Assembly (NCBI GenBank): GCA_965649765.1
Contig: OZ287756.1
Span: 744,001 to 808,000, forward strand
Source of the DNA: Bispira polyomma
Taxonomy: Eukaryota
Length of the DNA: 64,000 nucleotides
Direction of reading: 5' to 3'
Shown: positions 12,300 through 48,529 of the stretch, in pieces
Position numbering within the stretch: the stretch's first letter is position 1
Layout of the letters: each line of letters begins with the position of its first letter
Program-made: the position numbers and the translations under genes
The notes under the pieces: generated by a model
Database searches by the model: none
The model's input: only the letters and a program-made list of their open reading frames with translations
Told to the model about the DNA's origin: nothing

Positions 12300-15210
12300 C
12301 TCCTTCACCTCTGAGATGTGGAAGTTCTGTTTTACACTTCTCCCGTGTATCATTCTGGCTGGTGTCAGATTACATAAATGGAATGCCTGCTCTCTCACAT
12401 TACCCACAGTCCTAACCCCAGGGTTAACAGTATTTGGATCCCTCTGCTGACCGCTCTCTGCGGAGACGTCAGCATAAATCCTGACCCCCCCAGCATCCAT
12501 GCTTAAGATTGGTGCATTTAACGCCCGTTCCTCGTGGAATAAGGCGTCTGCGGCTATCGACTTAATCATTGCCCAGGAACTGGATATTGCTGCCGTCTCC
12601 GAGACGTGGCTCAGCAGTAGGGATACAACATCTTTTTTGTCGGATATTACTCCTCTGGGTTACAAGTTTCTTCAGTTTCCCAGGTTACACAAATGCGGGG
12701 GATGAGTTGGCATTTTTGTAAAAAATACTCTTTCCTGTGAAATTCTAAAAAAAACAGTCCTACTCTTCTTTTGAACACATTTCATGCAAAATTTCAAATG
12801 GTTATCACTCATTCCTAGTTTCCTCCTTTTACAGACCACCCATCCCTTCTTTAACTACTTTTACTCAAGAGTTATCCAAATTTCTAGAGACCCTTAACTT
12901 TCTCCCATTTGAAGCTATAATTCTTGGTGATTTCAACATCAAGGTCGGCATAGAAAATACTATGACAAAAGATTTCAAGGTTCTCACAGTTTATCTCCAC
13001 TTCAACCCACATCCACAATCACATACTCGATCTGGTAATCGCAAGACCAAATTCAAATCTCATCAGAGAATCATGGGTAACTGACGGGATTTCAGATCAC
13101 CTAGCAACCTTTGCCTATTTAAATTTACCTATACCTGCCTCACATAAACCTTGTGTCATAAAATACAGAAACATCAGAAAAATCAATATAAACAAATTTA
13201 GAGACGATATCCTGGAAACTAATCTCATCAAACATCCATGCAAAAATGCTGAAAGTCTTAACTTACAATACAATCACCGCCTTTCTACTATCCTTGATAA
13301 ACATGCGCCATGGGTATCTAAAACCCTTCCCACAACTAACCATCATGAATGGACCAACGCCGCCATTACAGAGGCCAAAAGACGCAAACGCCAACTTGAG
13401 CATCGATGGCAACGCACAAAATCCTCCTTAGATAGAAGCCGTTACTGTATCACCACAAATAATTACAACAGGCTAATAACTGATGCCAAAAAGCAACATT
13501 ACGACTCCATCATCACTGAAAATCAGGATAATCCCAAAAAGTTATGGGCCTCCATAAACAAAATTCTACATCGAACATCAGAGAAAGTTCTCCCCATAAA
13601 CCACTGCCTTACTTTTTTAGCTGAAAAATTTGGAAAATTTTTTATAGAAAAAATCAGCAACATTCGTGATGCCTTCCCAACGATACATCACTTCAATCCT
13701 TGAAGTTCTGAAACTGATCAAATCCTCTACTATTAAATCTTGTGACTTAGATTCCATCCCAACAGTTATTCTAAGTCAAGTCTTGACATTCTAGTCACAC
13801 CCATAACAAACATATTAAACTTTTCTCTTCGGGATGGTGTTTTTCCCACATCGAAAATCGCCACCAGTCTGCTTATAGAAAATTTCACTTTACATAAAGT
13901 GCCCTTTTTTCCATCAGCAATGATATCAATCTTGCACTGGACCGCAATGACACATTGGCCCTCACCCTTCTGGATATCTCAGCTGCATTCGACACTATTG
14001 ATCATGTCCTGCTCTGCGACACTCTCAAGCAGTGGTTTGGTATAAATGGCTGTGTCCTTAAATGGATCAGATCCTACCTTACTCTTAGGGCACAAAGAAT
14101 TAAACTAGATGATCATCTATCATCTTCCATAAAGCTACCATATGGGGTACCCCAGGGATCCGTCCTTGGCCCTCTACTTTTCACTCTTTATACACATCCT
14201 CTCAGCACTGTTATCAATAAACACAGTAAAAAACACCACATATATGTAGGTGACACTCAAGTCTATCTCTCTCTCAATCCACAAAATGCAAATACTAACA
14301 TAGACCTACTTGCAGACTGTCTGTCTGATGTCCAGGCGTGGATGAACTACTCCAAAGTAAAATTTAATCCTGACAAAAAAGAATTCATCCTCATAGGAAA
14401 CAAGAAAAACAACTCCTATAATCTCTGTTTGCCATCTCCCTGCTGGAAAAAGACATACTACCTTTTGAAAATGCTAAAAACCTGGGTGTCACTTTTGATT
14501 CAGCTTTTTCGTTCAATACTCATATTGCCAACATCTGTCGGCTATTACCACATACGCGACATCAAAAGAATCAGAAACGACTTGTCCATGGACACAGCAA
14601 TAACTGTGGCAAATGCCCTTGTGAGTAGCCGCCTCGATTACTGCAATTATCTCTTGTACGGAGCAAACAAGTCACACATTAAAAAGCGCTAGTCCATCCA
14701 ATACTACCTATGTAGGGTCATTTTCCGCCTGGGTTGTCGCACAGATATCACTCCTTACCTCAAAAAATTACACTGGCTACCCATTAAATCTCGCATTTTG
14801 TTTACGATTCACGTTACCACTTTTAAGGCTGTAGTCACTCAACAGCCCCCCTACCTTGCCTCCCTTCTGTCCTTCAGTAACCACAAGAGAGGCAACAGAC
14901 TCTCGGTCACTTCGGTCAGACCAATCAGAAAGGCCGGATTCAGAGCGTTCTCCACTGCAGCTCCACGGTTATGAAACAGTCTCCCAGTTGACCTTAGATC
15001 AGTTGACACACTTATCTGTTTTAGGAAAAAGCTTAAAACCTATCTTTTTAATCTTGCCTACCCACCTTAGCTTTCCTCGTGCACGCTCCCACTTTCTTCC
15101 TTGACTTCGCAATTTCCATGGACTTAATGATTGGACCAATGATTCTGCTGTTGCGCTTTAGAAGATGCCTAGCATCAATAAAGCGCGTTAAAAATCTATA
15201 ATAATAATAA
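12300..15210 (+). mobile_element. L2-clade LINE, near-complete ORF2 (APE + RT), frameshifted and internally deleted
   Basis: APE motifs FNARS...SETWL...GG*VG, YRPP, GDFNI and SDH. RT motifs LDISAAFDTIDH, GVPQGSVLGPLLF and YVGDTQ (decayed YADD), then SRLDYCN and LHWLP. (TAA)n tail ends at 15210. Confidence 0.93.
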
Positions 15211-16114: not shown

Positions 16115-19100
16115 GGCAAGGTAGCACCTCAGCGATAATAGGGTGAGTTCCAGGGGACCAGCTACTATTATGGGATAACTTATCTGCCTATATAAGCCAT
16201 CCCCACAAAATTTTCCCACCTTTTAACTAGTGTTTACAGTATTGCAGCAGAGTAAAAACATAATACTTCGTTTGGGTGACAAATAGTGGGAGTTTTTTTA
16301 TGTTTTTATTTTTATGGTTTTAATCTTACACTCTGTACTCTTTGACTGTGATAAGTTTCTTGGTAAGCTCAAGAGGTCCGTGGGCAGGAACTGTACTGTT
16401 GCTGGATCTGATGACTCTATTTTTGACCCGAGTGAGGTGAACTTGCTGAAGACAGCTTCTGATAGGAACTCAGTCTCAATTGCAATTTTGAAACAACTGC
16501 ACTCACTTAACCAAGTGATGGAGTGAATGGACCAGCCGGTGTAGCTCACAAAGGCAGCTCTAGCACAGAACCACACCAGTAACCAGGCCAGTAATTCACC
16601 TAGTAATGCTTAAACTTTTGATACTATAAATCTAGTAACTGACCCCACAGGTACTAGTAGCAAGGAGTTTTGAAATCAAAATGTACAAATACAGACTCAA
16701 GTCAAGCAAAGATTACCTGAGCTCAAGAACTTGAATGAGCCATCCTCAGGTGAAATTAAATTCCAGAGGGGAGGCGGTACTAAAGTATTAGCCAAAATAA
16801 TTAGTCGATTGGCTCTAGCATCACATATTAACAGAATGTTCTAAAACTCAGCCTAGCTATGATGACCTGTCGCTAGTTCAGTGGGCGTGATTAAAAGCGC
16901 TATGCTAGAGTACATGGTAATCAGATGGAGGATGGATACAATTTTTCGTGGGAAGTGAAGATGGAAAATTGAAATTGACATATTTGACTGACTTGATCTA
17001 GGGAAAGTGGATCGAGTCCGCCGTGTGCAGACGCAGCGACACATCATTCCTACCCAGACCTTGGCTAGTAGTAGTCTTAAAAATTCCCGAACTGCCAAGA
17101 AAAATGGCAGAAGTAAGCAAGGATCTGTTTCTTGCTGATTTTTTCAGGATCAAAATTGTCAATTCCCCAGTAGTCATAGAACAGGGGGTCAGCTTTATAG
17201 ACATGTATGTAAAAGTCACAAGACTAGCAATTGTACAAAAAAGGGTTAAAAAAACTAAGAAACAACTGCAAAAATGCAGTGGAAACTAGTCAGGGCGATA
17301 ATGTAATACATAGTCGAGTTGTGTTTAACACAGATTTTAATAATTTCAAATTGTTTGACCCGGCAATGGTAAAAAATGTGTACATATAACAAGAGCAGAT
17401 GTTCTTGCGTTAGTTATAGCCAAATATTGAAATCAAATGCTTTAAATTACAATGTACAAGAAGTAGTTGTGAAAAGGGTGGCTGTGAGATAATAGTTCAC
17501 AAACTTGGGGTATAACAACTTTCAAGCAAAGTGTCAAAAGAAACAATTCTAAAAAGAACGTTAGCATCTTTCACCTTGGTTCAAAAAAACCTGTAAGGGT
17601 GACCCCTATTGTTAAACCACTATAAAAGAACTGGGCCACAAGAGGTGTCCCCCTTAAAAACAATCAGCAAGGTGACAGAAATAACCTAACCTCACAATAG
17701 GTTCTTGCATACTTGTATATTCTTGTTCCTGTATACAATACCAACAAAGACAATGCTCTGATGGAGGGGCCGTTCATACGTCACCACACTCCCGTCCTCG
17801 GCCGAAACCAAAACCTATTTTCAACATTTAGGGCAATAGTATTGACAAATGTGTAGCCACAGATAAGTATGCATGTGCACTAAGACAAAAAAAAAACAAA
17901 TGTGACCTCTCAGCAATGCTACCTGCAGACAATGGCCCGGGCAGAGTGAATTTACTTATTGGTTCACACCCCTTTCAGATCCGGGTAATCGTATTGTTGA
18001 CAAAGGCAAAGCTGCCAGTGAACTCAGCATTATTAAGATGCATAATTGTTTACGAGCCCACGGCCAACACATTTATACAGGCCTTCAAATACCCGTATAC
18101 TAACAATTAAAAGCTACTGCTTGGCAGAAGTACTTGCATTATTATCGGACTTTGCAATTGCCTCTCTTAATCAAATACGGTTTTCCTTTGGATTTTTGTT
18201 GCAGTAATGTAACCCAATGCAATGTGAATTTGCCCAACACTTTGATATTGATTTGAAAGAGGAATGTCAGCTGGAGCCATGTTGAAAAACTTCCCATTAC
18301 AAATTTGCATTGTTCTCCTCTGATGACAAGGGACAAATCCAGTTCCAGCAATAAACATATCATTGTAGATCTGAGTTGGCCTCAGGGCCTATCCGTTAAT
18401 GCTGGGGTCTCACCAACCATGTATCCAAAAAACAAATTTTTACTATCTTATCCGTCCATTGACCATTTGACCAGTAACATCAAAAAATGGGGAGAGGTTG
18501 CCAGATATTCAAAGTAGACAGTAGTAGGGCGTTCTGTCACGTCTCTATTGACACTGGTGACATAGATCTTTTAGGTTATAATTGGAAGTCCTATTATGTG
18601 GACAGATCTTTGCCGTTCGGTTACCAAAACAGCTCAACTATTTTTCAGCATATTTTGGATGCCATTCGGTTTATAATGAAGGGTAAAAGTCACACCAACC
18701 GCAACTACATCAATGATTTTCTATGTGTATCGCTCCCCAGCAAAATTCAGCAAACTTTGATTAAATTACAAGAGTTGCTTTCTGAACTGGGGCAAGATGT
18801 TGGTCATTCCTAGCACACAAGTGATATGCATGTGTATCTTAATTAATACAGTGGATTACACAATCTTGATTCCAGCCGGAAAATTGCAAGAAATCAAGAA
18901 AAAATCAGGAAAGCAAAACAATACTGCACATATCATGAGTTACAATCCTTTCTTGGGCTCCTTTTATACGTAGCAAAATGCATCAGGTATGCTAGGGTCT
19001 TTCTTGACCAAATGCTATAACTATTGAGAGATAATTATACCCAGAAGCGTATAAAAATTACAGAGGAATTGAGTAAAGTTCTCAATTGGTTCAGAATTTT

Positions 19101-20457
19101 CATTGAAAATTTCATACAAATACATTACAAGTACTCGCCTATTTGGAATTTCTGGTTTATAACAAATTCACTGCCTCCCACATTGCTAACCAGTTATCAG
19201 GCATAAAAGCCGAATGTGTATTATTCAATATTGATGTACAACCTTTTGCCGATCAAAGAATTGTCTATTAAAATAGAGCCCTTTAGCGCCACAGGCCTTT
19301 CCAAGCTAATCTTAATTCAAATATTTACCTACCCTTGTTCAGAGCTCTGGTGGGTAAATGTGATCTGACGTATATGGCCAGATATTCAAAGCGGTGTATC
19401 TTACTAGCTTTATCAGTTTCCTTCGCTTGTCAAACTTATGTCTGTGTGAATGCTTGCCAGTTTCTCTCCTCCTAAACAAATGGCCAGATGGGATATCTTT
19501 TTTAAACTGGGTTGTGCAGTCCTTATGGTTAAATGGTCGAAAACTTGCAGTTTGATGCAGTTCCTTTGCTAACCAAACCAGGTTTACCTAATTCGCCCTT
19601 GTGACCAGTAACAGCCTTCGGGAACGTACTAGAATTCACCCGGGTCGGACATCTTGCCCTTATTTTAATATAGGCTGGGTGCTACCTGGGATCCGCTTAC
19701 AAATTCGAGAGTCCGTATGCAGCTAAAAAATGCCCTCAAATTGTCTGATTCTGTTTGCCTTTCCACACAATTCGGTGTTCAGGTGCCACACTGGCTTTCA
19801 ATAATAGCGTCAACATCCAGAACATTCATAAACACGGCACCTGGACGTTCGACTGTGTATGGTACTATATCCCGGATTCTGCCCTTACTGGCTCTAAGGT
19901 TGCAGATTGCTTTGGCTCTGTAATACTACCAACTTCCTAGAGAATATGGTGTTTGGTGGTTTGACGAAGTGAGTCGTCTCTTCAAAATTATAGAATAACT
20001 TACTTAATAACAGTGTATACAAAATTTCCTTTCACAGGAAACAAAGTTTCCTTCCTGGGGTATAAGGTTCCCCTTCATTCTTTCGAGTACATAATGTACT
20101 CCTTTATTTCAATTTTAATTTTAAAACCTTCATGTCCAAATTTCATTTGACATTTCAATTTCAAATTTGAAAACTTTAAGTCTAAAATTTAATTTAACCT
20201 AAACTTATTTCATCAGAAAGTTTAGGCTTAACTTAAACAAAATTCACATTAAGCCTTAACCTAATTTGTCTCTGTAAATTCAGGCTTAACCTTTTTTCAC
20301 AAACTTAGACTGAACTTAAGGTGACCTTATGCCTTTTTATGCTTTATATATAATAAATATTTAACTACAGCCTTTTTTTTACTTCTGTGTTTCATCAAAT
20401 GTCACAAAAGTTAAAAATGTTAACCTCTGAAATTTGTCCCTGGAGAAACTGAGGCAA
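16115..20457 (+). mobile_element. Tyrosine-recombinase retrotransposon (Ngaro/DIRS-like), element 1, decayed
   Basis: gag remnants 16314-17289. RT motifs YGFPLDF, IIVDLSWPQGLSVN, D.SRAF, LPFG and NYINDF (18130-19000). YR FHTIRCSGAT...HGTWTFDCVWYYI (19755-19940). Boundaries are fixed by the empty site in paralogous exon C, and GGCAA is duplicated at both ends. Confidence 0.88.
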
Positions 20458-30082: not shown

Positions 30083-30559
30083 CAGAGCCAGGTACACGTA
30101 TACCTGACAACAGATTGAGTCATCATACTCTGAGCCTACTGGAAGAAGCTGCAAAAAAACTTGTGGCTCCCCCAAACCCATCAAAAGTCCACCCCAGTTT
30201 TCAGGCACTTTAGTCAGAGACAACACTCTGCCATAAATATGGAGTTCAGTATTGTTTATTGGTTAGGCTTGGATAATGAGGCAAATAGTACAGAGAGACG
30301 CAGATGTCAAGAACTGTACTATATTTGGTCCTTTCCTACCCTCTACCCCAACTGGGATTAATGTATTTGTGTGATGAGGCCCTCTTACTTGGCACCCTTA
30401 CACTAGTGCCCCTGTACCCTTTATGATGACATAATATGTCAAAACTTTAACAGTGTTTGACAGTGATACCACTCTTTGTGATGATATTAGACAGGATACC
30501 CCACTGCTGTATCTACTCCCAAATTACTATACAGTACCCCTTAGCTTGCTTGCCAAATT

Positions 30560-32060
30560 CTCGTTATCTCTGCTGACAAAAGAGCACAATCCAGCAACCC
30601 CAGTTTTTGAAGACAGAAAAATGTTTAGGGACAAAAACATTTCCATTAAGGAGCTACTGTAAAATACATATGAAAAAAGTAAAGCAACCATAACACCTGA
30701 AAAAGGTAAAAGCAATAAACAGAGCAAGGTTAGTACTACTCCTAGTAATAACAGAGACACTGGTTGACCACATCCAGTGAGACAATGACGGATTTATACT
30801 GGTTACAACTATGGAACTATACTGGACTAAAGAGGAAGAATATGTTTCATGTTATGAATTTTGGTGAATTTTAACTTAATGATTGTTCAAGTTTATGAAT
30901 ATAGACTGAAATTGGACTAGAGAACAAGAAACCGCCTTTATGCTAAGAATACTTGTTTTATTAAAACATTTAAATATCATATGTTTTAGCATATACCATG
31001 AATGCATTTTAGGATCATTATCAGTGTCGACTATCACACTAATTCAAGATTACTATCTATTTTCTGCATTGTTGGTAACTAATTTAATCAAAATTAAATA
31101 TATGTTATACATATGTGTCGAAATTACTCATTAATAAATGCTAATTTATTGACAGTAATGTCTATATTAATATACTATAATGACAAAAGTTAATAAGTTT
31201 TCCTTTAAAATAAATGTTGCCACTTTAAATGTTCGTGGCCTAAGGAATAGAAGTAAAAGATTGAAATTGTTTCAATGGTGTGAGGATAAAGAAATAGATA
31301 TATTGCTTCTCCAGGAAACATTTTGCAACAGTGATATAACACAAGCAGTCTTAGGCAATTGGGATAGAAAGTCTTTTTATGTACCCACTGATTCAAATCA
31401 CAGTAGAATGGTTCTTATAGCTAAACATTTTCAGTTTGACCAATAAATGAATATAAAAGCCCTGATGGTAGGCTGATACTTATAAATATAATGCATCAAA
31501 ATGAGAAATTGACATTAGCATTAGCATTGACATTTTTTAACAATATTAAGTCCATTGTTAAACAAAGAGCTATTGATTATGATAACATAATTCTAAGTGG
31601 AGACCTAAACAGTATTACTGATCCCATCGCTCTTCTGGTGTATTTTATTTTTTTTTATTTGGATATTAAACGTCTACTCTAGTACCTGTTTAGGTTATAT
31701 TGGGACGAGTAGTTGGAAATGCTGGAGGAAGCACTGCATACAGCTCTTCTGGTGTAACTGATATTGGCAAACAACACTTTATTAATATGAAAGAATACCT
31801 TGGTCCGACAGACTCCTTGAGATTCTATAACAGTGACAAAATTGACTTTACATATTTGAATAGAAATAATCAAAAAAGTAGCAGTAGAATACATTATATT
31901 CTTCTTTCAAAGTTCTTAAACTCCTAAAACTCTGTTAAAACTATGTTGCATGTTACAGCCCCAGTTCCGGATCACAAGGGAGTATATGTGAAAATAGATT
32001 CTTGTAACAAACAATGTGCTCATGGATACTGGAAGCTGAATATGACTGTCCTAGATATAA
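30560..32060 (+). mobile_element. Tx1/L1-clade LINE, 5' part (ORF1 tail + APE domain), decayed
   Basis: ATLNVRGLRN...LLLQETF, DGRLI, LSGDLNS, SRIHYILLS, PDHKGV and GYWKLN. The element continues after the inserted YR element at ~37715. Confidence 0.82.
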
Positions 32061-32629
32061 GACAAGAGCTAAAAGAACCCAATTGGGAAATATTAATCTT
32101 TTAATTCTATGTTAATATTTTCTACATATATGTACATACCGGGTAGGCCCACTTTAAGGAGTTTAAGTGTGGGCCACTTAAGGTGACCTTAACATAAATT
32201 TTGATGAATTTTAAAATTAGGTTTGGTGTCACTTTATGGTGACCTTAAACCAAGATAAACTTAATTTAAGTTGAGATTGTGGTTAATTAAGTTGCCCTTA
32301 AATTGATGTAACCACAAGGTTTGGTCATTTAGGTTGATCTTAACTTCAAGTTAACCCAGATTGAGTTAAATTTTGGGGATCACGTATGGTGATCTTAACT
32401 GAAGGAAAGTGTAAGAAAGTTAAAAGTTTTTAAGTTAAGTAAACTTGAAGTAATATGAAACGTATATTTAAGTATACAATATTTACGTAAAATGGTAAAA
32501 TAAATGTGATATATAAATGTAAGGTGGCCCTAAATATAGACATGTTAAAGTTTTAGTATGCAATATGTGAAAGTTTGTTACAGGAGTTGGAAAAAAAGGA
32601 GCCCCAAACCCCAACTAGTGAGTAGAAAA

Positions 32630-33616
32630 CTACGAAAGGGCTGATTTGAGGGCCAGCGCTACCTGGTCAGTGGTGTTGTGATCCGGATTAATGTACCTCC
32701 ACACACAGTCCAACGTCCAGGTGCCATGAGCCTGGATGTCCTAAATGGGCACATTATGATTGAATGCATAAGTGGCACCTAAACGCCGGAAGGAGTGAAA
32801 GGTTATGTTTGAGGTTTGACAATGTAGACGAGTAAGAATGGTGTGCAGATTGGTTCTAACTCTTGAGTCTGTAAGTGGGATCCATTTTAGATTTAACTTA
32901 AACTGAAACAATGGTGAATTATTGGTACCAGGAGTGATGGCAAGCAAGTTTTTCACAGCCCTTACGGGACACAGGGGAGATGGGCCAAGGTGAGGTAACT
33001 TAATAATTCTGATTGTGTCTTTGGATTGAAGAATTTTAGTCCATTTAATGATAATGTGCATGCCAGGAGGTGAAAACAAGATGTCACCCCTGGCAAGCTG
33101 TTGAAGGGGGCAATAGGAAGCCACACTATGTGGAACAAGGTTGGAAATTCTAAGAAAAGAATAAAATGCCACCAAATATAGGGCCTTGAATACCTGGCCC
33201 ATATACATTGAGTCACATGTGAAGATTATGTCTGTGAGCAGTGGAATATGAATGATATTTTTCAGCTTTGCCCTAAATGGTTTATTGAGCAATATTGCTT
33301 TTTGGTAATATTTAATACGCTGGTCAGCGAAGCAAGAGGTGTCCACTCCGAATAATGCCATTTTTGCTTTTATTGCTGAAAGATAGTTGGTAATAGATGA
33401 GTTTGAGACATTACTTGTAACAAGCACTTCCAAAAATGCCAGTATGAATAAGGGAGTAATATTTTGTAGTCTAACCTTTGTGAAGCAGGTGAAAGCAAGG
33501 AAAAGTCTAAACATATGTGTGTAAGCCATTTGTGTGGAGGGTCTAAAAGCTTGGTGGGCCCTGGAGGCAGCCTTGGCTGCCACGGATACTAGTTGTGGAG
33601 GGAGACCTACAATCAA
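32630..33616 (-). CDS. Tyrosine recombinase (YR) of element 2 (one in-frame TAG at 32741-32743)
   Basis: FLRISNL (catalytic R), IKWTK and FHSFRRLGAT (HxxR). After the stop it reads DIQAHGTWTLDCVWRYI (H/W and catalytic Y). Confidence 0.92.
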
Positions 33617-33639
33617 ATAGACCAGTCTATGTTTAATGT

Positions 33640-36204
33640 ATTATCTTTCACCTCTACCAATTCTGGTTCTGCATAGCTAGCCTACTCTGGCTGTCTGAAT
33701 ACAAATGCCACCTGGATAATAGGTCAGCCACGACGTTACTTTTCCTAAGATATGAATTGTGCTAAAGCTAATGTCAGCCATTGCTGTTTCCATATGGATA
33801 TTTCTGGCTATGGCAGCCAAGGTACGGTCTTGAGTTCTACCTGAGTTAAGTATTGTAACCACAGCCTCATTATCACAATGTACTAATAACCGTTTGCCTC
33901 TCCATTGGTCTTTCCATAGCCTAACTGCGACTAGTATATTGAGCATTTCAAGGTGAGTTATGTGGTAACTATTATAACCTCTGGGAATTTGCTTTTTGTA
34001 TACCTGGCCTTTACAGCGACCCCTAGGCCCTCAAGACAGGCATCTAGCTCTATGCAATCAGTGATTGGGCGATGGTCAAAGAAAGCTTTGCCATTAAAGG
34101 TGGGTAAAAATGTACAGAACCAGTTGAGATCCTGACAGAATTCTACTTCTAGGTTTATTACATGTGCACTATAAGCTGATCTCAGTACCTCTAACATTCT
34201 GTTGAGAAATAACCTTGAAACTTTCACACATTTTGAGATGTATAGTAATTTGCCTAGTAATGACTGTAGGTCACGCTTTTTACATGTATGTTTGCCTTGC
34301 CAGGATTGACATAATCCCATGATTTCTTGTAGTTTTTCCTGAGGAACTGAGACTGTGAAGTCTTCGGTGTTTATAAGCACCCCTAAGTAGACTACCTGTG
34401 TATTTGGACGCACAATTTTCTTTTCACTTATGTCAAAACCTAGGTCATGGAGTACATGATGTAACAAGTCGAAAGAGTACTGTATTTTAGAGGGAACGCC
34501 ATAGCTTATAGTGTCGTCTATGTAGTTAGTGACGTCACAGTCATGACGTTGCATGATAAAGCGTACAGCGTCACTTAGACACTGGAATATGGCACATCCG
34601 TGACGAAATCCGAATGGGAGATAAGTATCAACAAAGTACTGTTCATGTTTGAGACCCATAAGGTTGTAGTCCACAGGGTCCATTTTGACGTGACGAAAGG
34701 CCCTACTAATATCTGTCTTATATAGAAGTGAACCACGTTCCAATTGACGCACTTTTTGAGTAATGGTATCAATTCTAGGTAGTGTTAACACAAAAGGAGT
34801 ATTCAAATACTCATCTTTGGCTACCCCTGAATTGACCGAACTACCCTGTGAGAAACTGAGGTCTATTATGACCCTCCTGTGGACTGCCCCAGGCTTTTCT
34901 CGGGTCATAAACGGTCCCTACATGGTGGTGCTGAGTATGGACCCAACATGGCCCCAAATTTAACTTCTTCATCTAGATAAGCCTTGATATCATCTGGGAA
35001 ATCAGTTGCTGACTTATGATTTTCCTCTTTATGTGATAGTTGTTTATTGTTGTCGAAGTCAAATGGGAACCCATATCTGATAAGGTAAGGCAACTGCTTA
35101 TCCCAGTAACCCTGGAGGTAGAAATCTCACCTGTCAGCATTAAGCTGAGATTTTACTTGAATTTGTTCCCCCCTGAAGTTTGGAAGATTTGAGTTTTTGA
35201 TCTGTTCATGTATGTCAAACAAGGGAGCTGTTGATTTATTTCTTGTATCAAATACAGGAATTGTGAGGTCTCCCATAGGAATAAAGCCAAACTTGTCTTG
35301 TGTTTGGGTATCCCAATTTTGAAAACATTTGTTGGTACGAGCTAACTTCATGAGTTCTTTACTCTTAGGTCTGGCATGCAGTTGTAAGTCATACTTGTCT
35401 GAGTTTTGAATTACACTACTTAAGCCCGGGTTTGTGTTACTACCCTGCCGACAGTGGTTGTTTGCCCTAGTGTGAGTCACACTTAAGGTTTTCTTTTTTG
35501 AACCTGTCGCATTAGTGTGAACCGCACTTAAGGTTTCATTGTGTTCAGTGTCACCAAGTGTGTCCCCATCCTCCTCATTTACCAACGACAATGGAAGAAA
35601 TCTGTTATGAAAAGTCCCCACATTGTTTCTCCCAATTTTGGGTTTCACACTTTGCCATTGTTTTCTGAGGGAGGTGCGACTTTGTTTCACAATAGGACTA
35701 ACCATTGTGTTGGGGGATTTTTTGACACCTTGTACTTATGCGTCGGTGTGTTGCGCTGAAAAAACATTATTGGTTTCTTTCCTAGACCCATATACTTGTG
35801 GCCTAGGTACATTGTAAATACAACTTTTATAAACATTTAAACAAGAACCACTGGACTGTTGCTTTTTGACATTTGAACATGTTAAGTGACAATTGGAAGT
35901 ATTGAACACTCTTTGTTGTTTTTTTTCCTTCCAAAGTACCTGTGATTTTGCTGAAACCATTTGAAAGTATTTGGGCATATGTTTTGCCTTGAAACCTTGC
36001 CCAGTCTGCTTTCCAATTGTCACTGACATTATGTACACATACACTATTTTGAATCACTCTGGTTCTAGTATAAGCATTATTATGTACACTTTCTTTACTT
36101 CTATGATTTAGTCCATTTTCATTGCTTGTTTTTAAACTTTTCACAGTAATTTCAGAACATTTACTATTGGGCACTGCACTACTGCAGTGCCCTACTCGTT
36201 TTTT
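33640..36204 (-). CDS. pol (low-complexity N-terminus + reverse transcriptase + RNase H) of element 2, frameshifted
   Basis: RT motifs RVIIDLS..SVN, DISRAFRH, LPFG, NYIDD and YLGVLI. RNase H motifs ELDAC, EMLNILVA, HCDNEAVV and HILG. Confidence 0.9.
36169..36204 (-). promoter_or_regulatory. Candidate -1 programmed ribosomal frameshift signal (A AAA AAC + 10-bp stem-loop) at the gag/pol junction
   Basis: Element strand reads gcA AAA AAC gag ta GGGCACTGCA gtag TGCAGTGCCC. The -1 frame is open into ORF 36174-35827. Confidence 0.72.
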
Positions 36205-37184
36205 GCACTGCTGTTTCTACGGCAGTCTTTAGCCGAGTGTGGGAAAGAACGGCCTGTGGCATGACAGTTTGCACATACATGCGCATACAATTGTCCCTTG
36301 GTCTCGTGGTCCCCTTTCTGGGGACACAAACCCTTCTGGAAGAATTTACACGGGATGGATTTCTCACTATTTCTCTTGGGTACCCCAGAGCCCGAAGTTT
36401 GACCCGCAAAACCTTTTGGGCATGAGCCCTTCTCAGCCTATCGATTTTTGAGGTATCTTGCCAAGATAATTTCCCCTCTTCCATCTTACATGTTAACACC
36501 GCATAGCTACCTTTTGCCGCTACCCAAGTGAAATAGTGAGTCTTTCATTAGGTCAGACATATACTCAAGCATTTGGTTTTTTGTTTCAATGTTTGTTTCT
36601 TCTCTAATTATGGAACTAAACCCAGCCACCCACTGGGCCATTGACAACACATCGTAGGACATTGTGGACTTATTGCTACCACCTAGAATAAAGTTTTGGG
36701 GCCAGGGTACCTGACGCTTCACCCATATTGTTTCCTGACCGCCTCTTTGTGACCGGAATGTACCTTATTCATTGACTTGTTGTAGTTCTCGCAGTCTCTT
36801 GTCCACGGCCGCCTGTAGGTCTGTAGATTGCCTCAGGGTCTGCAAGGACGGCACCACAGTCTCGCTCATCTGGGGTGCACTGGATGCTGCCAGTGCTGTC
36901 GCTGCCTGTGATGCCTGGACGCTGACAGGAATCACACTAGTGTGTGTCCAACTCGGCTCCGTAACACTATTCTGTTCATATTTGTCCATGCGTGAACTCA
37001 AGTCACTTAGTTGTTTTAGAATCAACAGATTTACCTCATTTGACGAGATATTCCCTGAGTTTGTATCACTGTTCACTACAGAAACACTGTCCGTTTCTCT
37101 TAATACCACTTTACATTTCTCGTTTATAGGCTTTTGATGGTGTCCACCACATGCCTCACAATAATATGTTATTCTCAGTGCCAT
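36192..37184 (-). CDS. gag-like ORF1 of element 2 (frameshifted)
   Basis: N-terminal CxxCxxxHxxP...C. Central WPQNFIL...SYDVLSMAQWVAGF...LEYM. C-terminal zinc fingers CKFFQKGLC...H...HVCANC...H...C, ending AKNE*. Confidence 0.82.
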
Positions 37185-37714
37185 CTGTATAAAAATATGA
37201 TACGGCTGTTTTGATACCTGTGAATATTTTAGAGGTTTATTTTGTCAGAATTTGAAATAAAATACCGAATGATGGTGTGAAAACTGTATAAAAAGCCTGA
37301 TAACGTCCCTCTAATATTGCCCCAACAAGTTGAAGCCAATAATCACAAGACTCAAAACAGAGTTATTATAGCACAGGAGCGCTGCAACCACTGGATCCAC
37401 AAGCACAATCGAGTCCTTCTATAGACATCTATTTGATTAAAATACTAAAATAAAGACTAAAATGACTAAGATCCACGAAAAAGTTCAGCAAATATATTTT
37501 TGTGTATTTGCTTAAAATGGCGTCTTGCCACTTCAGATTTAGTTTTTAAAGTGAGGCAAACGTGTATTTTGGCGCCAGGCTAGTATTTAATGAGGGCAAG
37601 TTACACCAATGAATCTGGGGTCAATTGGTGAGGGCTACATGCTAGTATTATGTTACCTGAAGCACTGAACCCACTAGCACCTTCGTGCTACCTAGCACTC
37701 AATGTAGTGAACAT

Positions 37715-38030
37715 GTTGATCCTAGACAATTGCTTGATTTTCTTAAATTACCAATTAAAGAATTTTCTATTGTTTTTGTGTAAATAAAAGTAAGCAAGAC
37801 AAAAATGTAACTTTAAAATTGGAATCAGAAATAAATAAAATTGATGCTTCCATGAGGAATGATATATTTGGTCATGAAGAAACTAATTCGCTCCTAGATC
37901 ATAGAGAACATTAAGGTTACAATTAGAAACAAGGAGAAATGGGAACAGCTTTCTTTCGTCGCCTTGAAAAACAACATCAAAACTTTAATAAAATTTATTC
38001 ATTGAAAACAAAACAGGTATTGTAACACAG
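37715..38030 (+). mobile_element. Tx1/L1 LINE continuation
   Basis: LDFLKLPIKEFSI and QGEMGTAFFRRLEK...IYSL (Tx1 post-APE GEKxTxYFxxLEK-like motif). Confidence 0.65.
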
Positions 38031-38034
38031 ATTG

Positions 38035-38461
38035 AAAGCGAACGCCCTCAGCATTCTCGGCATCAGTTCTGGCGTACAAGGCTGATCACTACTATGGGAT
38101 AGATAGGCGAGTAAATAAGCCCATCCCCCTTTTCAAATTCTCCCGCCTTTTTACCATTTCGTCAGCAGAACAAATAGGAAATTTTAGAACATGGTTTGGG
38201 TGACAAAGAGAGTTGGGTTCTATAGTTTATTTGGCTCCTTCAAGTAAAATTAAATCTCAGAGAACTGGGGTAAATGATGTGATTGTGAAAAAAGTGGTTG
38301 GGTGGCTACAGAATTACGTGTTGATGGGTAGTGCTAAAACGCGCCCAAGTTATGATGACTTAACCTTAGTACAGTGTGTTTGTGGCTTCACCCGGATCGC
38401 ACATGAAGAGAAATTGACTGAAATTAAGAATGCAATGTTAGACTATATGGCTTCCTTCTAA
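38035..38461 (+). mobile_element. YR retrotransposon 5' fragment (element 4)
   Basis: gag KIKSQR...WLQNYVL...PSYDDLTLVQCVCGF...MLDYM is homologous to element 2 gag. The 5' leader (ctcagc...ctactatgggata...ataagcccatcccc) resembles 16128-16205. Confidence 0.8.
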
Positions 38462-39423
38462 TATAGACGTCGGCATAAAAAATTATATATTCTGCAATTA
38501 CATCAATGGTTAATATTAATTATTAATAAAAAAAGACTGTAGTACCTCTAGCGGACAAAACCCAAACCATTGTCAAGTACACAGATAGATATGCACCTGT
38601 TGTTTACTTTTCTCTAACGACCTTTACACGAAATTGACAATGCAGTGTGTATATATAAGCAAGGAAGTTTATAACAAATAAAACGAACAGAAATGGTTGG
38701 AAATATAATGGTATAATTTATTTTTTAATATAATTAACTAAATAACCCTGCCTTGTTGTACACCATTTCTGCGCTTTATTTATTCTCATACTTCAAATAT
38801 CATGCACTAATATATGTTCCCCAGTCAAAGATCAAAGCCATTTTCACGTGACAGCATTATGACATTTCATATACAGTACATGTGCTTCATGTCTTTGACA
38901 AATAAAAATATATATATCGAGCCATTATTAACAACAAATGAAATAGGAAATGGCTGGAAATCTGAAAAGAAGTAAGAAACAATATTTTACCATATATCTT
39001 CACGTTATTTCCATAATATTTCCTTATTCTGATTCCTGCAAATATATCAATATCGCCCCTGTCAGGGACAGAATCCTAGCAAAATATTTTTACTTTCTTA
39101 GTATACACAGATTTCAACCTCTCAGAATATCAGCTGATATGTGCGTAGTTTAAAATATGGATTCACAATTCAATTTCCTTTGTTAATTCGATGCGGTTTA
39201 CTTAAATAAAACATAAATAATATTTACCTTATGTATATAAGGCCTGCTTAAAATTATTTACTTTGTTGTTAAAGGGTGAGATTTCCATTGAACTTTTGTT
39301 CTAATTGTGACCAAAATATTGAAATAAAATGGCGTCTGTACTGTTTATTTAGGGTAAGTGAAAATATAAGATGTTTTGTACAAACTAGTTGGCCAATACA
39401 GCTCCATCTTCTCGACCAGTGTC

Positions 39424-39606
39424 TACATGGGCGGTCACAATAGTGTCCGGGTCACAATATCGATTGATGCACGTAGATTTCTCAAAAATAAAATATAGTA
39501 TTGTTTAACTTAATTTATAGGCATAAAGTATCATGTATTTTCAATATTAATTTCTGTCAGTAAGTTCTTTAAAAATAAAACTAACACTATTGTGACCACC
39601 CATGTA
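39424..39606. mobile_element. Tc1/mariner-type MITE (~180 bp)
   Basis: TA-catgggcggtcacaatagtgt ... acactattgtgaccacccatg-TA: 21-bp TIRs with 1 mismatch and a TA duplication. Confidence 0.8.
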
Positions 39607-44266: not shown

Positions 44267-47200
44267 CAACATCTCTATTTTCTATCTTTAGCCTTAGCGA
44301 CAGAGTTACTTCATCAACACGTACAGCACCACACAAGAACAATATTGGATTACTAGTTTATCTACAGAAATATCGTCAACAACCCTCTGTAAATAAGCAC
44401 CATATGCTCTTAAACTTGTGTTTCTTATATTTCCTTCATGTTGCAAATTTGTTTACTTCTACTGTAGAGAGATCCAATGAAACACAACCATATAACGATA
44501 TACCATACCTTCTGGTACCATACAGCCATACAGCTATAACACTTCCATCCACATTTCCATATCACATATTTACCTCAGACCCTTCTGTGCTCTGGGTTGG
44601 ACAACGAAAGGGGTAGGGTTAACATTTTGACCATTATTCTACAGCAATCCACAGAGAGGATTTGAACACCAGACCTATCTTAATGTTTTTTACAAACTTC
44701 CGTCTGTGATTTAAGGCTGTCGCTATAATGTTTGACCCATCCTTACTTTAAGGTAAACATTGACTTTAAACTGATAAATGTGTGTGTTGCGAAATTGTGA
44801 ATAGTCCCTGACCTTAAGTAACCTCAGAACATATAAATTACATATAAGTGTTTGTTTGTAATATTATATTGAAAAAATTACTTTTTCACTGAAACAAAAC
44901 CAAACAAAGTCATTCTCGAGAAATATGTTCCTTTGTGTAGAAAGTAACATCATGTGCATTGTTGTGGACATTTACAGTAATACATGTGTCAGTGATTGGA
45001 TGGTAAGTGACACACACTTCCCTTGTCACTGTGTTAAAATGATAGGTCTGACTGACTAATACTAATCCAATAAACAACTACAGAAGGAAACATTTTAGTC
45101 TGTTGCAGCAGAGAATAAAAGAGTGACTGCAGGAATAAAGAAAGCTGAACACTTATTTTATGAACAGTTTAGTAAAATTAACAGTTACTGCTTCATCGCA
45201 ATGGGTAACTGGGATCCTTGTTATCAAACTGTGTTTCTGCTATGCACAATATAAACTGAAGTAAACTATCTACACAATATAAAGACTTAAATGTTCAAGA
45301 AAATAGCAAGAACAAAAATGGAATAAACAGGTACCTTCTCATTAATGCACTGTTTACATGTTGTTGTTTTTTTGTTGTTATTTCATATTCATGTTAACAT
45401 GAAGAATTTGGGTTCTATTATCTACTGATTAGACAGTATCAGTTTTCTTAAAAAGAATGATAAAAATAGAAAGGATGTTGTAAAAGCGATAACTGACATA
45501 GCACGAATAAGGAACTGAAAACCTTGTCAGAATTGGGACATTCAAGTCAAGTATACAGTGATTGATAACACAAAGAGGTTTTTCAGAGAAATCAGGCATT
45601 GCTCCTTGTGACAACATTATAAATAGTAAAAGAGTTGCGACATTTGTGAAATTGCTACCTGACATGATGATTTGGCTATTTGTAACATGTTTCATCCAAC
45701 TCGAAGGCCATTTATTAAATTCGATAACCCAGCCAATCGCCATAGTGCCAAAACTGGAAGTATGCTCTTGCTTGTCCCATGTCACACCTCCATTAAGGTA
45801 AATTTGGTGTAATCCTAGTGATACACATACAAGCAAATCATCAAAAAATGCAATCTACACAAGCGAAACATGACTTCCTTGGCGAAGGTAATAAATCCTT
45901 TCCCCCAATTTGTCACACAGAATTCATAAAAAGTTTAACATGGATGGAGACACTATTTAAATATTCTAGTAACAGTTAAATGAGCTAGAAAATACAACAA
46001 TTTTATCCAGTAGATCCATACCACCAATCAATCACTAATCAATGTTTGAAGAAAGAAAATTGCAACTCTAATATGTTTGTTGGAATTATGTAGTTTGTAG
46101 ATATGCCTAAGCAGCTAAAATAAATGTTGAAAAGTAGACAAATCACTTTGTTGTGTTCTGGGATGGATTTAACTTTGTGGATATTTCACCTGACCTTTTG
46201 TCCTTGAACTTCTTTTATTATAATATCCCATTGGAATATTTTGCCTACACACTTAAGTTGGTGTGTTTAAAAGTTAACTTATTTTATGTCACTAGTATTG
46301 TACTTTAACTTAGTGTGTCAATACCACCTTGGTTACTTTATGTTATTGAAACTAAATTAGACTGGCAACCCGAATATGTTTGTTGCAATTCATCCTGTTA
46401 ATCAAGCGATCTATATTGTTACATTTAGAACCCTCTCACAACAAGTTTAGTACTCTGTCACAAAAAAAGTATGCCATCACAAATAATGTAAACATCTTTA
46501 AACAAGGCCTTAGACAGAAGCAAAAATATCAGGTCTTAATTACCCTGAATGTTTACATGTCATAGCCTACATCAATCTTGAAAAAATACATTTAACAATA
46601 ATAGTTTATTTCTGTACTCATAATACGTAGTTACTACATGTATGACAAACAGATAAAAAAGACAAACACACAAAAACTGAGAAAGTTGGAAACAGACAAA
46701 TTATTTACAACAGCACCGTAAGTGTATAACAAAATAAGAGGGCACTTTACATGTACAATTTAATTCAAACTTGTTCTTCATAGAGATTATTTAACATAAA
46801 ATTTATTTTATTAATTGTAAATGTTGTAGTGTTATTATTCCTTAGATACAGAAAGTCCTTAATATTATCAATAATATGACATTCATTTCTCTCATTCGTA
46901 CCATTTTTACAGGTCTTAAAAATTTTGTTACTGTAGGTCTCACAGAGTTTATTATTACTGACATTAGAGGTATTCCCTAACAAAGCCATCTTAGCACAAG
47001 TGTAGATGACATAGTTTGTACCACAAATAAAACTCTGAAAAAATTGTAAAAATCTCTTATACATCTGAATGTCACATTTGATATTTGATTTCATATTAAT
47101 GTTGTTTCGGTTTAATGCTTTGTCATTACCTTAAGTTAACATCACATTAAAATATAACAGTTCTACATTGAATTGACTATTTCATCATCCTGATGTATAC

Positions 47201-48516
47201 TTGATTTTCTTACAAATTAATTGTCAATATATATGTCTCATATATCTCATGTCTCACATATTTTTCATATATACTACCAAGCTTAAATGGGCATATGGCA
47301 AGACATTCCCAACTGAATATCTTGGATAAACTAATTACAATAATTGGTGAATCAGAGACAGAGAATGTAACCAATATTTGAATGAGAGATATATAATGGT
47401 TACATCGGATTGCATGACAGTCCTATTAACCTGCATAACAGGAAAGTTCACCCTAAAGTGGAAGGGTTTCTATTTATCACTTTTATGACTCTAACAATGC
47501 AGCATCAAAGTGTAATGGTATGTTGACAAAACATACATAAATAATTGAAGAGATTTTCATTGCTAAAACTATTCCACACCATAAATATGATTTTGCGGTT
47601 TTACACCAATTATATGTGCTACAGTAAAGGATATCAAGTAGAATAGCATTATTACAATAGACATATCTCAGAATTCAAGCTAAAACTTATTGTAGAAAAC
47701 ATTTCAATAACAAGGAGCATTATAGGTTTTAAAAGGCTGTTTTTATGGAACATATAGTCTGATTATGCACAAAACTCAAAATCAAAACACAGATTTATGC
47801 ATCTAGTTTGATTGAATGGTGAGTGACTGGAAACAAGTTAACACTCCGGAAATACTAGATAAAACCAAATTTAAGGACAAGAGTAGGTATTGTGAAAAAA
47901 CAGTTGCAGTTGTTTATTTTTTTATTTATTTATACACAAGGTATAATATTACAAATACAGAATACAAAAATGTTAAATATATATTATATGTGGGTTGTGG
48001 GGTGTTTAGGATCACATTAACAATGTATACCTAATATATAGCCAGTTAGGACCAAAAGGCTTAATGTAGCTAACATGCTAGCTGTGTACTGAGATTTAAT
48101 GAGAGTCAGAATTACAAGTAGTGTCAAATACTGATTCAGATGGTAAAGAAATATTCACTGTCAGTTCTTATATTCACAGAATACGTTTTAGAGGGAACCT
48201 TTGATTCCTGTTGTAGTATTGATAACACTTTTAAAAGATGCAATTTTTACAGATTCGTTAGACAGATATTGGGACATATATATTACCTAAGGCCAGGAAT
48301 AGATGCCAGTAGGGCATTACATATGAATAAATCAGATGATTCTGTTTTGGCTGGCATATACCATTAGTCAATACTTTGCATTACACATTATATTTATCTG
48401 TTTCTATTTCTGAAATACTTGATGTAACTCTTTTAGTATCATAATAATGCTATGTAGTCTTACTTAGGTAGACTTTTAAAGGAGCCCTTGTATTTTAGTT
48501 TTACTGATCAGAAAAA
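44267..48516 (+). repeat. Recent tandem segmental duplication, unit A (~4.25 kb)
   Basis: Near-identical to 48530-53473 (offset 4769 at the 45429/50198 ORF pair). Both units end in actgatcagaaaaact. Confidence 0.95.
45430..45895 (-). mobile_element. Non-autonomous Helentron/HINE-like element (duplicated at ~50200-50664)
   Basis: Minus strand starts ttattaccttcgccaaggaagtcatgtt (hairpin cctt-cgcc-aagg), then ...ggattacaccaaat...acatgggacaagcaagag...ttttgg. This layout resembles widespread animal HINE-type repeats. Confidence 0.5.
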
Positions 48517-48529
48517 CTACAACATCTAC

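Follow-up and report, generated by a model that had tools for sequence, protein, structure and literature searches.

The gag and pol genes of a Ngaro-like tyrosine-recombinase (YR) retrotransposon are very probably joined by –1 ribosomal frameshifting at the slippery heptamer A AAA AAC, as judged from sequence comparison. The junction under study lies in the window (the whole stretch of 64,000 nucleotides that was analysed) and is part of a decayed copy of a multi-copy element. In the proposed mechanism, most ribosomes would halt at the gag UAG, and a minority would pause on A AAA AAC with tRNA-Lys and tRNA-Asn, probably held by a hairpin 5 nt downstream, slip one base back and continue into the reverse transcriptase/RNase H (RT/RH) frame, so that Gag-Pol would be made in a low, fixed proportion. 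In related lineages, a leaky UGA would serve instead, mostly in the context UGA-CUA. Less firmly, we lean towards a wider scheme in which Ngaro-like elements make Gag, Gag-Pol by recoding and Gag-N/recombinase by splicing, and in which recoding has flipped at least three times within one clade between A AAA AAC and UGA-CUA.

Organisation and state of the element

On the – strand, the main element carries gag (37184-36192), RT/RNase H (to 33613) and a tyrosine recombinase (to 32630), in that order, all on the same strand and without long overlap. The gag-like ORF1 (36192..37184), broken in the window copy, was matched by the gag profile in four pieces (E 5.6e-35 to 8e-12), and has an N-terminal CxxC..H motif, a helical core, a C-terminal CCCH and CCHC zinc knuckle, and a tail ending in ...SAKNE*. 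A structural model of Gag (pLDDT 76, pTM 0.43) matched no PDB entry at E≤0.001 (best Z 5.4) and retrieved only unnamed Atlas clusters, and no credible Pfam match was obtained for either the gag pieces or the N-terminus of pol; because these searches returned no named match, the 'gag' label rests on position and zinc knuckle. Pol (33613..36204, – strand), equally broken, lies in the –1 frame and consists of a conserved NW[RK]xDW motif near 36010, a long low-complexity linker, RT, RNase H and the C-terminus ...NIDWSI*. The recombinase ORF (32630..33606, – strand), with a premature stop at 32743-32741, has an N-terminal SAM-like integrase domain, and H-S-F-R-R and W-R-Y motifs were read in it by eye. 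In Pfam scans of the window pieces, RVT_1 (E 8e-10) and Phage_int_SAM_5 (E 6.7e-5) passed the cut-off and RT_RNaseH (E 3e-4) fell under it, with no rve match among the 11 pieces scanned; the element thus combines an RT/RNase H ORF with a tyrosine recombinase, without a DDE integrase.

This organisation is that of Ngaro elements (order DIRS, YR retrotransposons), which the available text of PMC8547959, PMC3266345 and PMC7192593 defines by gag, RT/RH and YR, no methyltransferase region and little ORF overlap. The main element shares the order and the small overlap, and it lacks a methyltransferase region after RNase H, pol stopping at ...DWSI soon after, as in most long homologs; among the 338 long pol homologs, the best 120 have no MT family listed. 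The definition also includes split direct repeats (A1-[ORFs]-B1 A2 B2), and self-BLAST of 30500-39500 revealed no split or terminal direct repeats in the window copy. Contig depth was ~2-3x higher at both element ends (37584-37817; 32202-32669), and one joint connected 37698 to 32099, which fits split direct repeats without demonstrating them; some related loci have direct repeats at their contig ends. One such locus (L001:1-7824) is a whole eukaryote-type Ngaro-like element with direct repeats that fills a contig of a bacterial MAG, likely as contamination.

Each of gag, pol and YR contains stops or frame changes in the window copy. In gag these are a stop at 36767-36765 and frame changes near 36537 and 36402. 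The –1 frame of pol meets a stop at 35829-35827, 125 codons past the heptamer, followed by stops at about 35737 and 35128, and changes frame near 35918, 34913, 34019, 33740 and 33680, so that the stop-free passage into the RT ORF originally described does not exist in this copy. The host appears to be an AT-rich eukaryote, probably invertebrate, and the family was present in three DNA runs of one study. In run X1, long contig pieces were 1-4% off the window, with a depth of about 100-400 over the element against 14 for the flanking piece, which points to a young, multi-copy family and an older copy in the window. Abundant sister contigs differed from the window by indels at 36537, 36402, 35918, 34913 and 34019, which are five of its frame breaks. 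The comparison covered 12 of 82 rows for indels and 40 of 1,065 for substitutions, too few to speak to the constancy of heptamer and stem or to the absence of the remaining breaks. Each of the five indels fits the frame step seen against homologous proteins, so that, in these sister copies, RT is in phase with the frame that starts at the heptamer. Three contig joints from diverged or deleted copies ended exactly at the heptamer start 36204/36205 (to 36265, 36290 and 36409); these may be diverged subfamilies regaining similarity, or could alternatively be deletions.

The window holds several further features. Directly upstream of the main element, and oppositely oriented, is a gag fragment at 38204-38458 (+); the 3′ part of an RT/RNase H region is found at 55060-54239 (–). 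ORF pieces at 12966-14692 (+), with an RVT_1 match (E 1e-18) and unmatched by the Ngaro pol profile, are probably fragments of a non-LTR element. A strongly skewed tandem array of about 50 copies of a 38-bp unit occupies about 56256-58200, and 44658-48518 and 49413-53474 are tandem duplicates of each other, 97-99% identical and repeating at about 4.77 kb.

The gag/pol junction in the window

On the – strand, gag ends in GCA AAA AAC GAG TAG. The heptamer A AAA AAC (36198..36204) stands in gag phase (X XXY YYZ), and the same heptamer is found at the gag end of 10 related families. It is followed by a 5-nt spacer (36193..36197), with the gag stop TAG at 36194-36192, and by a perfect 10-bp stem with the 4-nt loop GTAG (36169..36192; arms 36192-36183 and 36178-36169), a candidate frameshift stimulator. 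This layout is exactly that of the original prediction. The hairpin was present in both the MFE and the centroid structure (z –3.7 over 121 nt, with 1 of 200 shuffles as good), and the 60 nt directly 3′ of the heptamer gave z –5.2. Although AAAAAAC occurs 43 times in the window (24 on +, 19 on –), only the match at the gag/pol junction has a perfect 10-bp hairpin 4-10 nt downstream.

In the pol frame, the stem region encodes G-H-C-S-S-A-V-P. The first ATG of the –1 frame lies 108 codons past the heptamer, beyond the break at 35918, and the 95 codons between heptamer and break are without ATG, yet contain the conserved pol motif. No acceptor-like splice site was found within 200 nt of the heptamer in the window.

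A further Ngaro-like element, from another family, older and more heavily decayed, lies on the + strand at about 16340-19860 of the window and is 30-37% identical to P0081. Its junction signal (17249..17280, +; z –1.6) reads A AAA AAC TAA, with the heptamer at 17249-17255 and the TAA extending to 17258, and is followed 9 nt past the heptamer by a 6-bp stem, ACTGCA/TGCAGT, the same core as in the main stem.

Gag and Pol proteins of the window's clade

The clade of the window element was compared via read contigs and via proteins (of ENA source where shown, and possibly from few species), the DNA loci described further below being more distant relatives. The gag search yielded 189 representatives, 58 of them with a complete knuckle, of which 51 had a tail of ≤25 residues. 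Among these short-tailed homologs, 41 of 51 carry KN within the last 11 residues (one match, P0332, being spurious) and 33 terminate in KN or KNx, against a background of 96 KN in 12,619 positions (0.0076 per position). Four of the 58 (P0028, P0262, P0266, P0331), and also P0053, read on into the pol frame.

On the Pol side, the best 120 of 338 long homologs were examined. The gag profile matched none of these 120, and 46 carry the motif NW[RK]x[DE][WY] in their first 90 residues. Seven start M.HC at the stem, 30 start MP, 10 start MQ, and 10 read through KK[RL]..C; we infer, from protein records only, that many of the MP and MQ starts are a GTG in the 3′ arm of the stem picked by a prokaryotic gene caller. 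The –1 frame of the window matched 29 of these 120 N-termini (E≤1e-3) and the 0 and +1 frames matched 0 of 120, both control frames containing stops. Pairwise matches of the –1 frame (E 1e-10 and 9e-14) begin at the heptamer and stem residues, and coding constraint therefore starts there, upstream of any ATG. The pol frame contains no conserved ATG.

Two junction types among related loci

Of 57 loci with 30-45% pol identity, 19 without the junction were dropped. The remaining 38 comprise 20 in which A AAA AAC stands at the end of gag (10 families; its phase in six decayed copies was assigned by homology only), one mutated copy (L047), and 17 whose gag ends in TGA and is a candidate for readthrough (L001, L003-5, L007, L009, L014, L016, L021, L023, L025-28, L032, L042 and L055). 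The two types are mutually exclusive: the final 48 nt of gag in the TGA-type loci contain no X XXY YYZ in frame, and K-N is absent from all 17 of their gag ends. In-frame A AAA AAC has a background of 2 in 8,049 gag codons. Where pol is open for ≥500 codons, the 20 junctions consist of 5 families in –1 with the heptamer and 15 junctions in frame 0 with TGA, with no +1 junction and no stop-free fusion among them; the –1 frame is open for 637-701 codons from the heptamer in the five families. The corresponding Fisher test (5/5 vs 0/15 for the heptamer in –1 and in-frame junctions, p 6e-5) overstates the case because the families are related, and the tree gives about three independent contrasts. 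Every cleanly –1 relative thus has the same heptamer in gag phase, which is the conservation that the original prediction had called for.

The two types also differ in their stops. The gag stop of the heptamer type varies (TAG 6, TAA 3 and TGA 2 of 11), and that of the other type is TGA in 17/17, followed by C in 14 and by CTA in 10. UGA readthrough is the likely mode in these relatives. In-frame gag and pol, which had been set against the frameshifting proposal, did not show up in the window's clade as a gag-profile match among the 120 long pol proteins, and are seen, around TGA, in about half of the more distant relatives; the frameshift is therefore a trait of some Ngaro-like lineages, not of all. 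Among individual loci, the –1 frame closes 4 codons past the heptamer in L041 and after 25 in L045, both decayed; L042 is ambiguous, in that it lacks the heptamer, has TGA-CTC and takes up pol again in –1 beyond a gap; and pol is fragmentary in L055. The first pol-frame ATGs lie 3 to 258 codons off, with no common place.

Several other features of these loci were recorded. The L013 family has a TGATG stop-start overlap. A pyrimidine tract with an acceptor-like YAG, 29 nt from the heptamer start and in phase 2 in pol, is present at L013:272-310, L018:1461-1495 and L040 near 1468. Very long pol ORFs (L002:732-3818 and L003:3010-6294; 1,029 and 1,095 codons) extend about 500 residues ahead of the RT-associated region. 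No relative was confirmed in viral contigs with RT, gag or pol queries, and the gag scan of metagenome contigs found none among 562 stretches.

The distribution of the two types was mapped onto an unrooted RT/RH tree of 33 unnamed rows and 550 columns (LG+G4 without mixture, no named Ngaro reference), which left out L040, L045, L048, L055 and family duplicates and in which L042 was 47% filled. Three changes between heptamer and TGA types are needed, and the starred branches force three. The heptamer-type rows form three groups (the window; L013/L018/L022; L010/L024/L033/L041), with nine protein-only rows clustering with the window. Because the tree is unrooted, gain and loss of either type look alike on it. 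The –1 slip and UGA readthrough, both candidate modes, would thus replace each other in related lineages.

The pol/YR junction

At the junction of pol and YR, the frame varies among related loci (0, –1, +1), and no heptamer stands in frame there in any of 37 related loci. A second –1 site considered at this junction (A TTA AAC near 33630) was rejected: the heptamer is invalid, none exists in the 37 relatives, and the frames vary.

Splice-like signals of consistent phase were found instead. A candidate phase-1 donor lies in gag (G/GTACAT, 36758..36764, – strand, cut 36764/36763), and a candidate phase-1 acceptor, identified by eye, lies directly past the pol stop (..TTGATTGTAG/G, 33606..33625, – strand, cut 33607/33606), with a second phase-1 acceptor site, scored by script, 24 nt past the pol stop. 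A pyrimidine-rich YAG in phase 1 of YR, ≤150 nt from the pol stop, was found in 19 of 22 junctions tested, the window among them, in a scan that counted the first three sites per locus, scored none in L001 and L003, found phase 2 only in L005, and met a phase-0 site first in L013, L015 and L016. A phase-1 G/GT at the G-K..K-S motif of gag was found in 9 of 24 gags scanned, again including the window, with 10 gags missed by the motif pattern and 5 matches lacking GT. These signals make it likely that YR is produced separately from a spliced RNA in which the 5′ half of gag is joined to YR. The pol/YR junction then serves as an internal control, because neither frame nor heptamer is constrained there, where splicing is likely. 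Immediately 5′ of the gag ATG, a pyrimidine tract and a CAG (37200-37184, –) suggest an intron in the 5′ leader.

RNA structure 3′ of the junction

In the 60 nt 3′ of the junction, median z was –1.4 after the heptamer (12 families) and 0.05 after TGA (17; Mann-Whitney p 0.003), against 0.55 in a control 150 nt further on (p 0.005 versus after-heptamer); at 90 nt, the difference between heptamer and TGA persisted (p 0.005) and that to the downstream control was weak (p 0.07), all p-values treating families as independent, with kinship uncorrected. A z of ≤ –2 was reached in 4/12 heptamer families and in 0/17 TGA-type junctions, the latter having no stable structure in the 60-90 nt after TGA. 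Strong stems stand 5-10 nt past the heptamer in the window, L022, L033 and L045, the first three unrelated in sequence, and the folds of L013 and L040 do not surpass those of shuffled sequences (z +0.7 and +2.4). RNAalifold on L024/L033/L041 gave 15 pairs, of which 5 were changed on both sides and 8 were broken in one sequence (covariation term –0.34), and on eight L022/L045 copies gave a covariation term of 0, without recovering the single-sequence stem. The stem that had been predicted is thus present in the window, but a strong one occurs in only 4/12 families, and the covariation expected of it was not found by RNAalifold.

Alternative explanations

Several other readings of the junction were weighed against ribosomal frameshifting. 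Transcriptional slippage, in which one extra A inserted by RNA polymerase into the six-A run would put gag and pol in frame in some RNAs, is very improbable. The motif is indeed an A6 run, and the four of 58 complete-knuckle gag homologs that continue into the pol frame, together with P0053, are what a changed run length would give; however, in 11/11 junctions the run has the same codon phase and AAC at its end, neither of which a polymerase slip needs, and the read-on proteins looked up are single-member clusters of 202-485 aa, as expected for mutated copies or homopolymer read errors. RNA polymerase II, moreover, is not known to slip often on A6. Hardly better placed is the idea that pol expression depends on splicing or on re-initiation close to the gag stop, with the heptamer a by-product of a conserved K-N peptide. 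The elements appear to splice for YR, acceptor-like sites exist 29 nt from the heptamer in L013, L018 and L040, the L013 family has its TGATG, and the seven M.HC starts among the best 120 of 338 Pol proteins mean that some could use a real ATG. Yet those acceptor-like sites are in phase 2 in pol against phase 1 of the gag donor, the window has none within 200 nt, and pol-frame ATGs, 3 to 258 codons off, share no position. A K-N peptide would leave the codons AAA AAC and the preceding A free to vary, and it is absent from the 17 TGA-type gag ends, while splicing would free the frame, as at pol/YR. That the heptamer is a chance match in a dead element has next to no probability: the copy is decayed and lies in an AT-rich window with 43 AAAAAAC matches, but the heptamer is conserved across 12 families, against the background of 2 in 8,049 codons, and excluded from the in-frame type, so that the comparative counts refute this reading.

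Ribosomal frameshifting, the preferred explanation, is supported by KN gag ends, a conserved –1 frame and a shared heptamer, and the Gag-Pol fusion originally put forward finds support in comparison in that sense. Within it, we consider the hairpin fairly likely to be the frameshift stimulator. In a variant of the same explanation, its probability counted inside it, the frameshift would be real and the hairpin would have another role (packaging, dimerisation or a DNA-level function) or reflect the HC..AV peptide. This variant is rather unlikely. It would account for z above –2 in 8/12 heptamer families and for the lack of covariation in RNAalifold, and since the stem in the window's clade also encodes the conserved HC..AV peptide, protein constraint may contribute; it sits poorly with unrelated strong stems recurring 5-10 nt past the heptamer, and with 0/17 TGA junctions at z ≤ –2.

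Relation to known systems and implications

The arrangement in the window shares with retroviral and animal LTR-element –1 frameshifting the X XXY YYZ heptamer in gag phase, a short spacer, a downstream structure and pol in –1. MMTV and HTLV gag-pro use A AAA AAC. The parts of PMC5009743 available to us report pol in –1 in 28/51 animal LTR elements, place A_AAA_AAC among the heptamers most shift-prone for mammalian ribosomes, and contain 0 matches for DIRS or Ngaro. Unlike these systems, the window element has a tyrosine recombinase rather than a DDE integrase, no protease was seen, the stimulator would be a plain hairpin, and one heptamer serves all 12 families seen.

The TGA-type relatives, not the window element, resemble readthrough systems such as MuLV, whose gag-pol junction is a UAG (PMC5009743, same excerpts), and Candida Tca2, in that gag and pol are in frame around one stop, here in the context UGA CUA(G). 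UGA CUAG is a context that favours readthrough (bioRxiv 10.1101/2021.04.18.440353, available text). In contrast to those systems, the TGA of the relatives lacks stable structure in the next 60-90 nt, and two modes alternate on one RT tree. The gag-UGA-pol junction of Tca2 alone did not direct readthrough in yeast, according to the accessible part of PMC2194720; a UGA junction therefore need not act as a simple leaky stop, which is a warning for the UGA half of our claim.

Poulter and Butler (2015), as quoted in the available text of PMC13003380, considered a frameshift probable at the RT/RH-YR overlap, whereas in the loci studied here frames vary and splice-like signals occur at that place, and the candidate slip site lies between gag and pol. 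Neither a slip site nor readthrough at gag/pol is described for YR elements in the accessible text of PMC8547959, PMC3783388, PMC6681497, PMC3266345, PMC9210276, PMC7192593, PMC8905726, PMC13003380, PMC5009743 and bioRxiv 10.1101/2021.04.18.440353. Nor did any of the papers retrieved describe how the reverse transcriptase of YR retrotransposons is expressed, in keeping with the view that pol expression in YR retroelements is poorly characterised. Poulter and Butler (2015), Goodwin and Poulter (2004) or Repbase may already mention a gag/pol overlap, and element annotations in literature supplements could bear on novelty. The mechanism itself is of a known, textbook kind; the Ngaro-like setting, the exclusive UGA alternative and the repeated switching are what was not found in print.

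For annotation, gene callers cut these pol ORFs because they have no true start codon, and the YR ORF is likely annotated without its first exon. The analysis provides testable signals, namely one heptamer with its stem, one leaky-stop context and one donor/acceptor pair. If the reading is true, the frameshift of the 2015 review would move from the pol/YR to the gag/pol junction. Ngaro-like elements would then show a retrovirus-like control of the Gag to Pol ratio outside LTR elements and would have switched repeatedly between two modes of recoding, offering a natural, replicated experiment on the conditions under which frameshifting and readthrough can substitute for each other.
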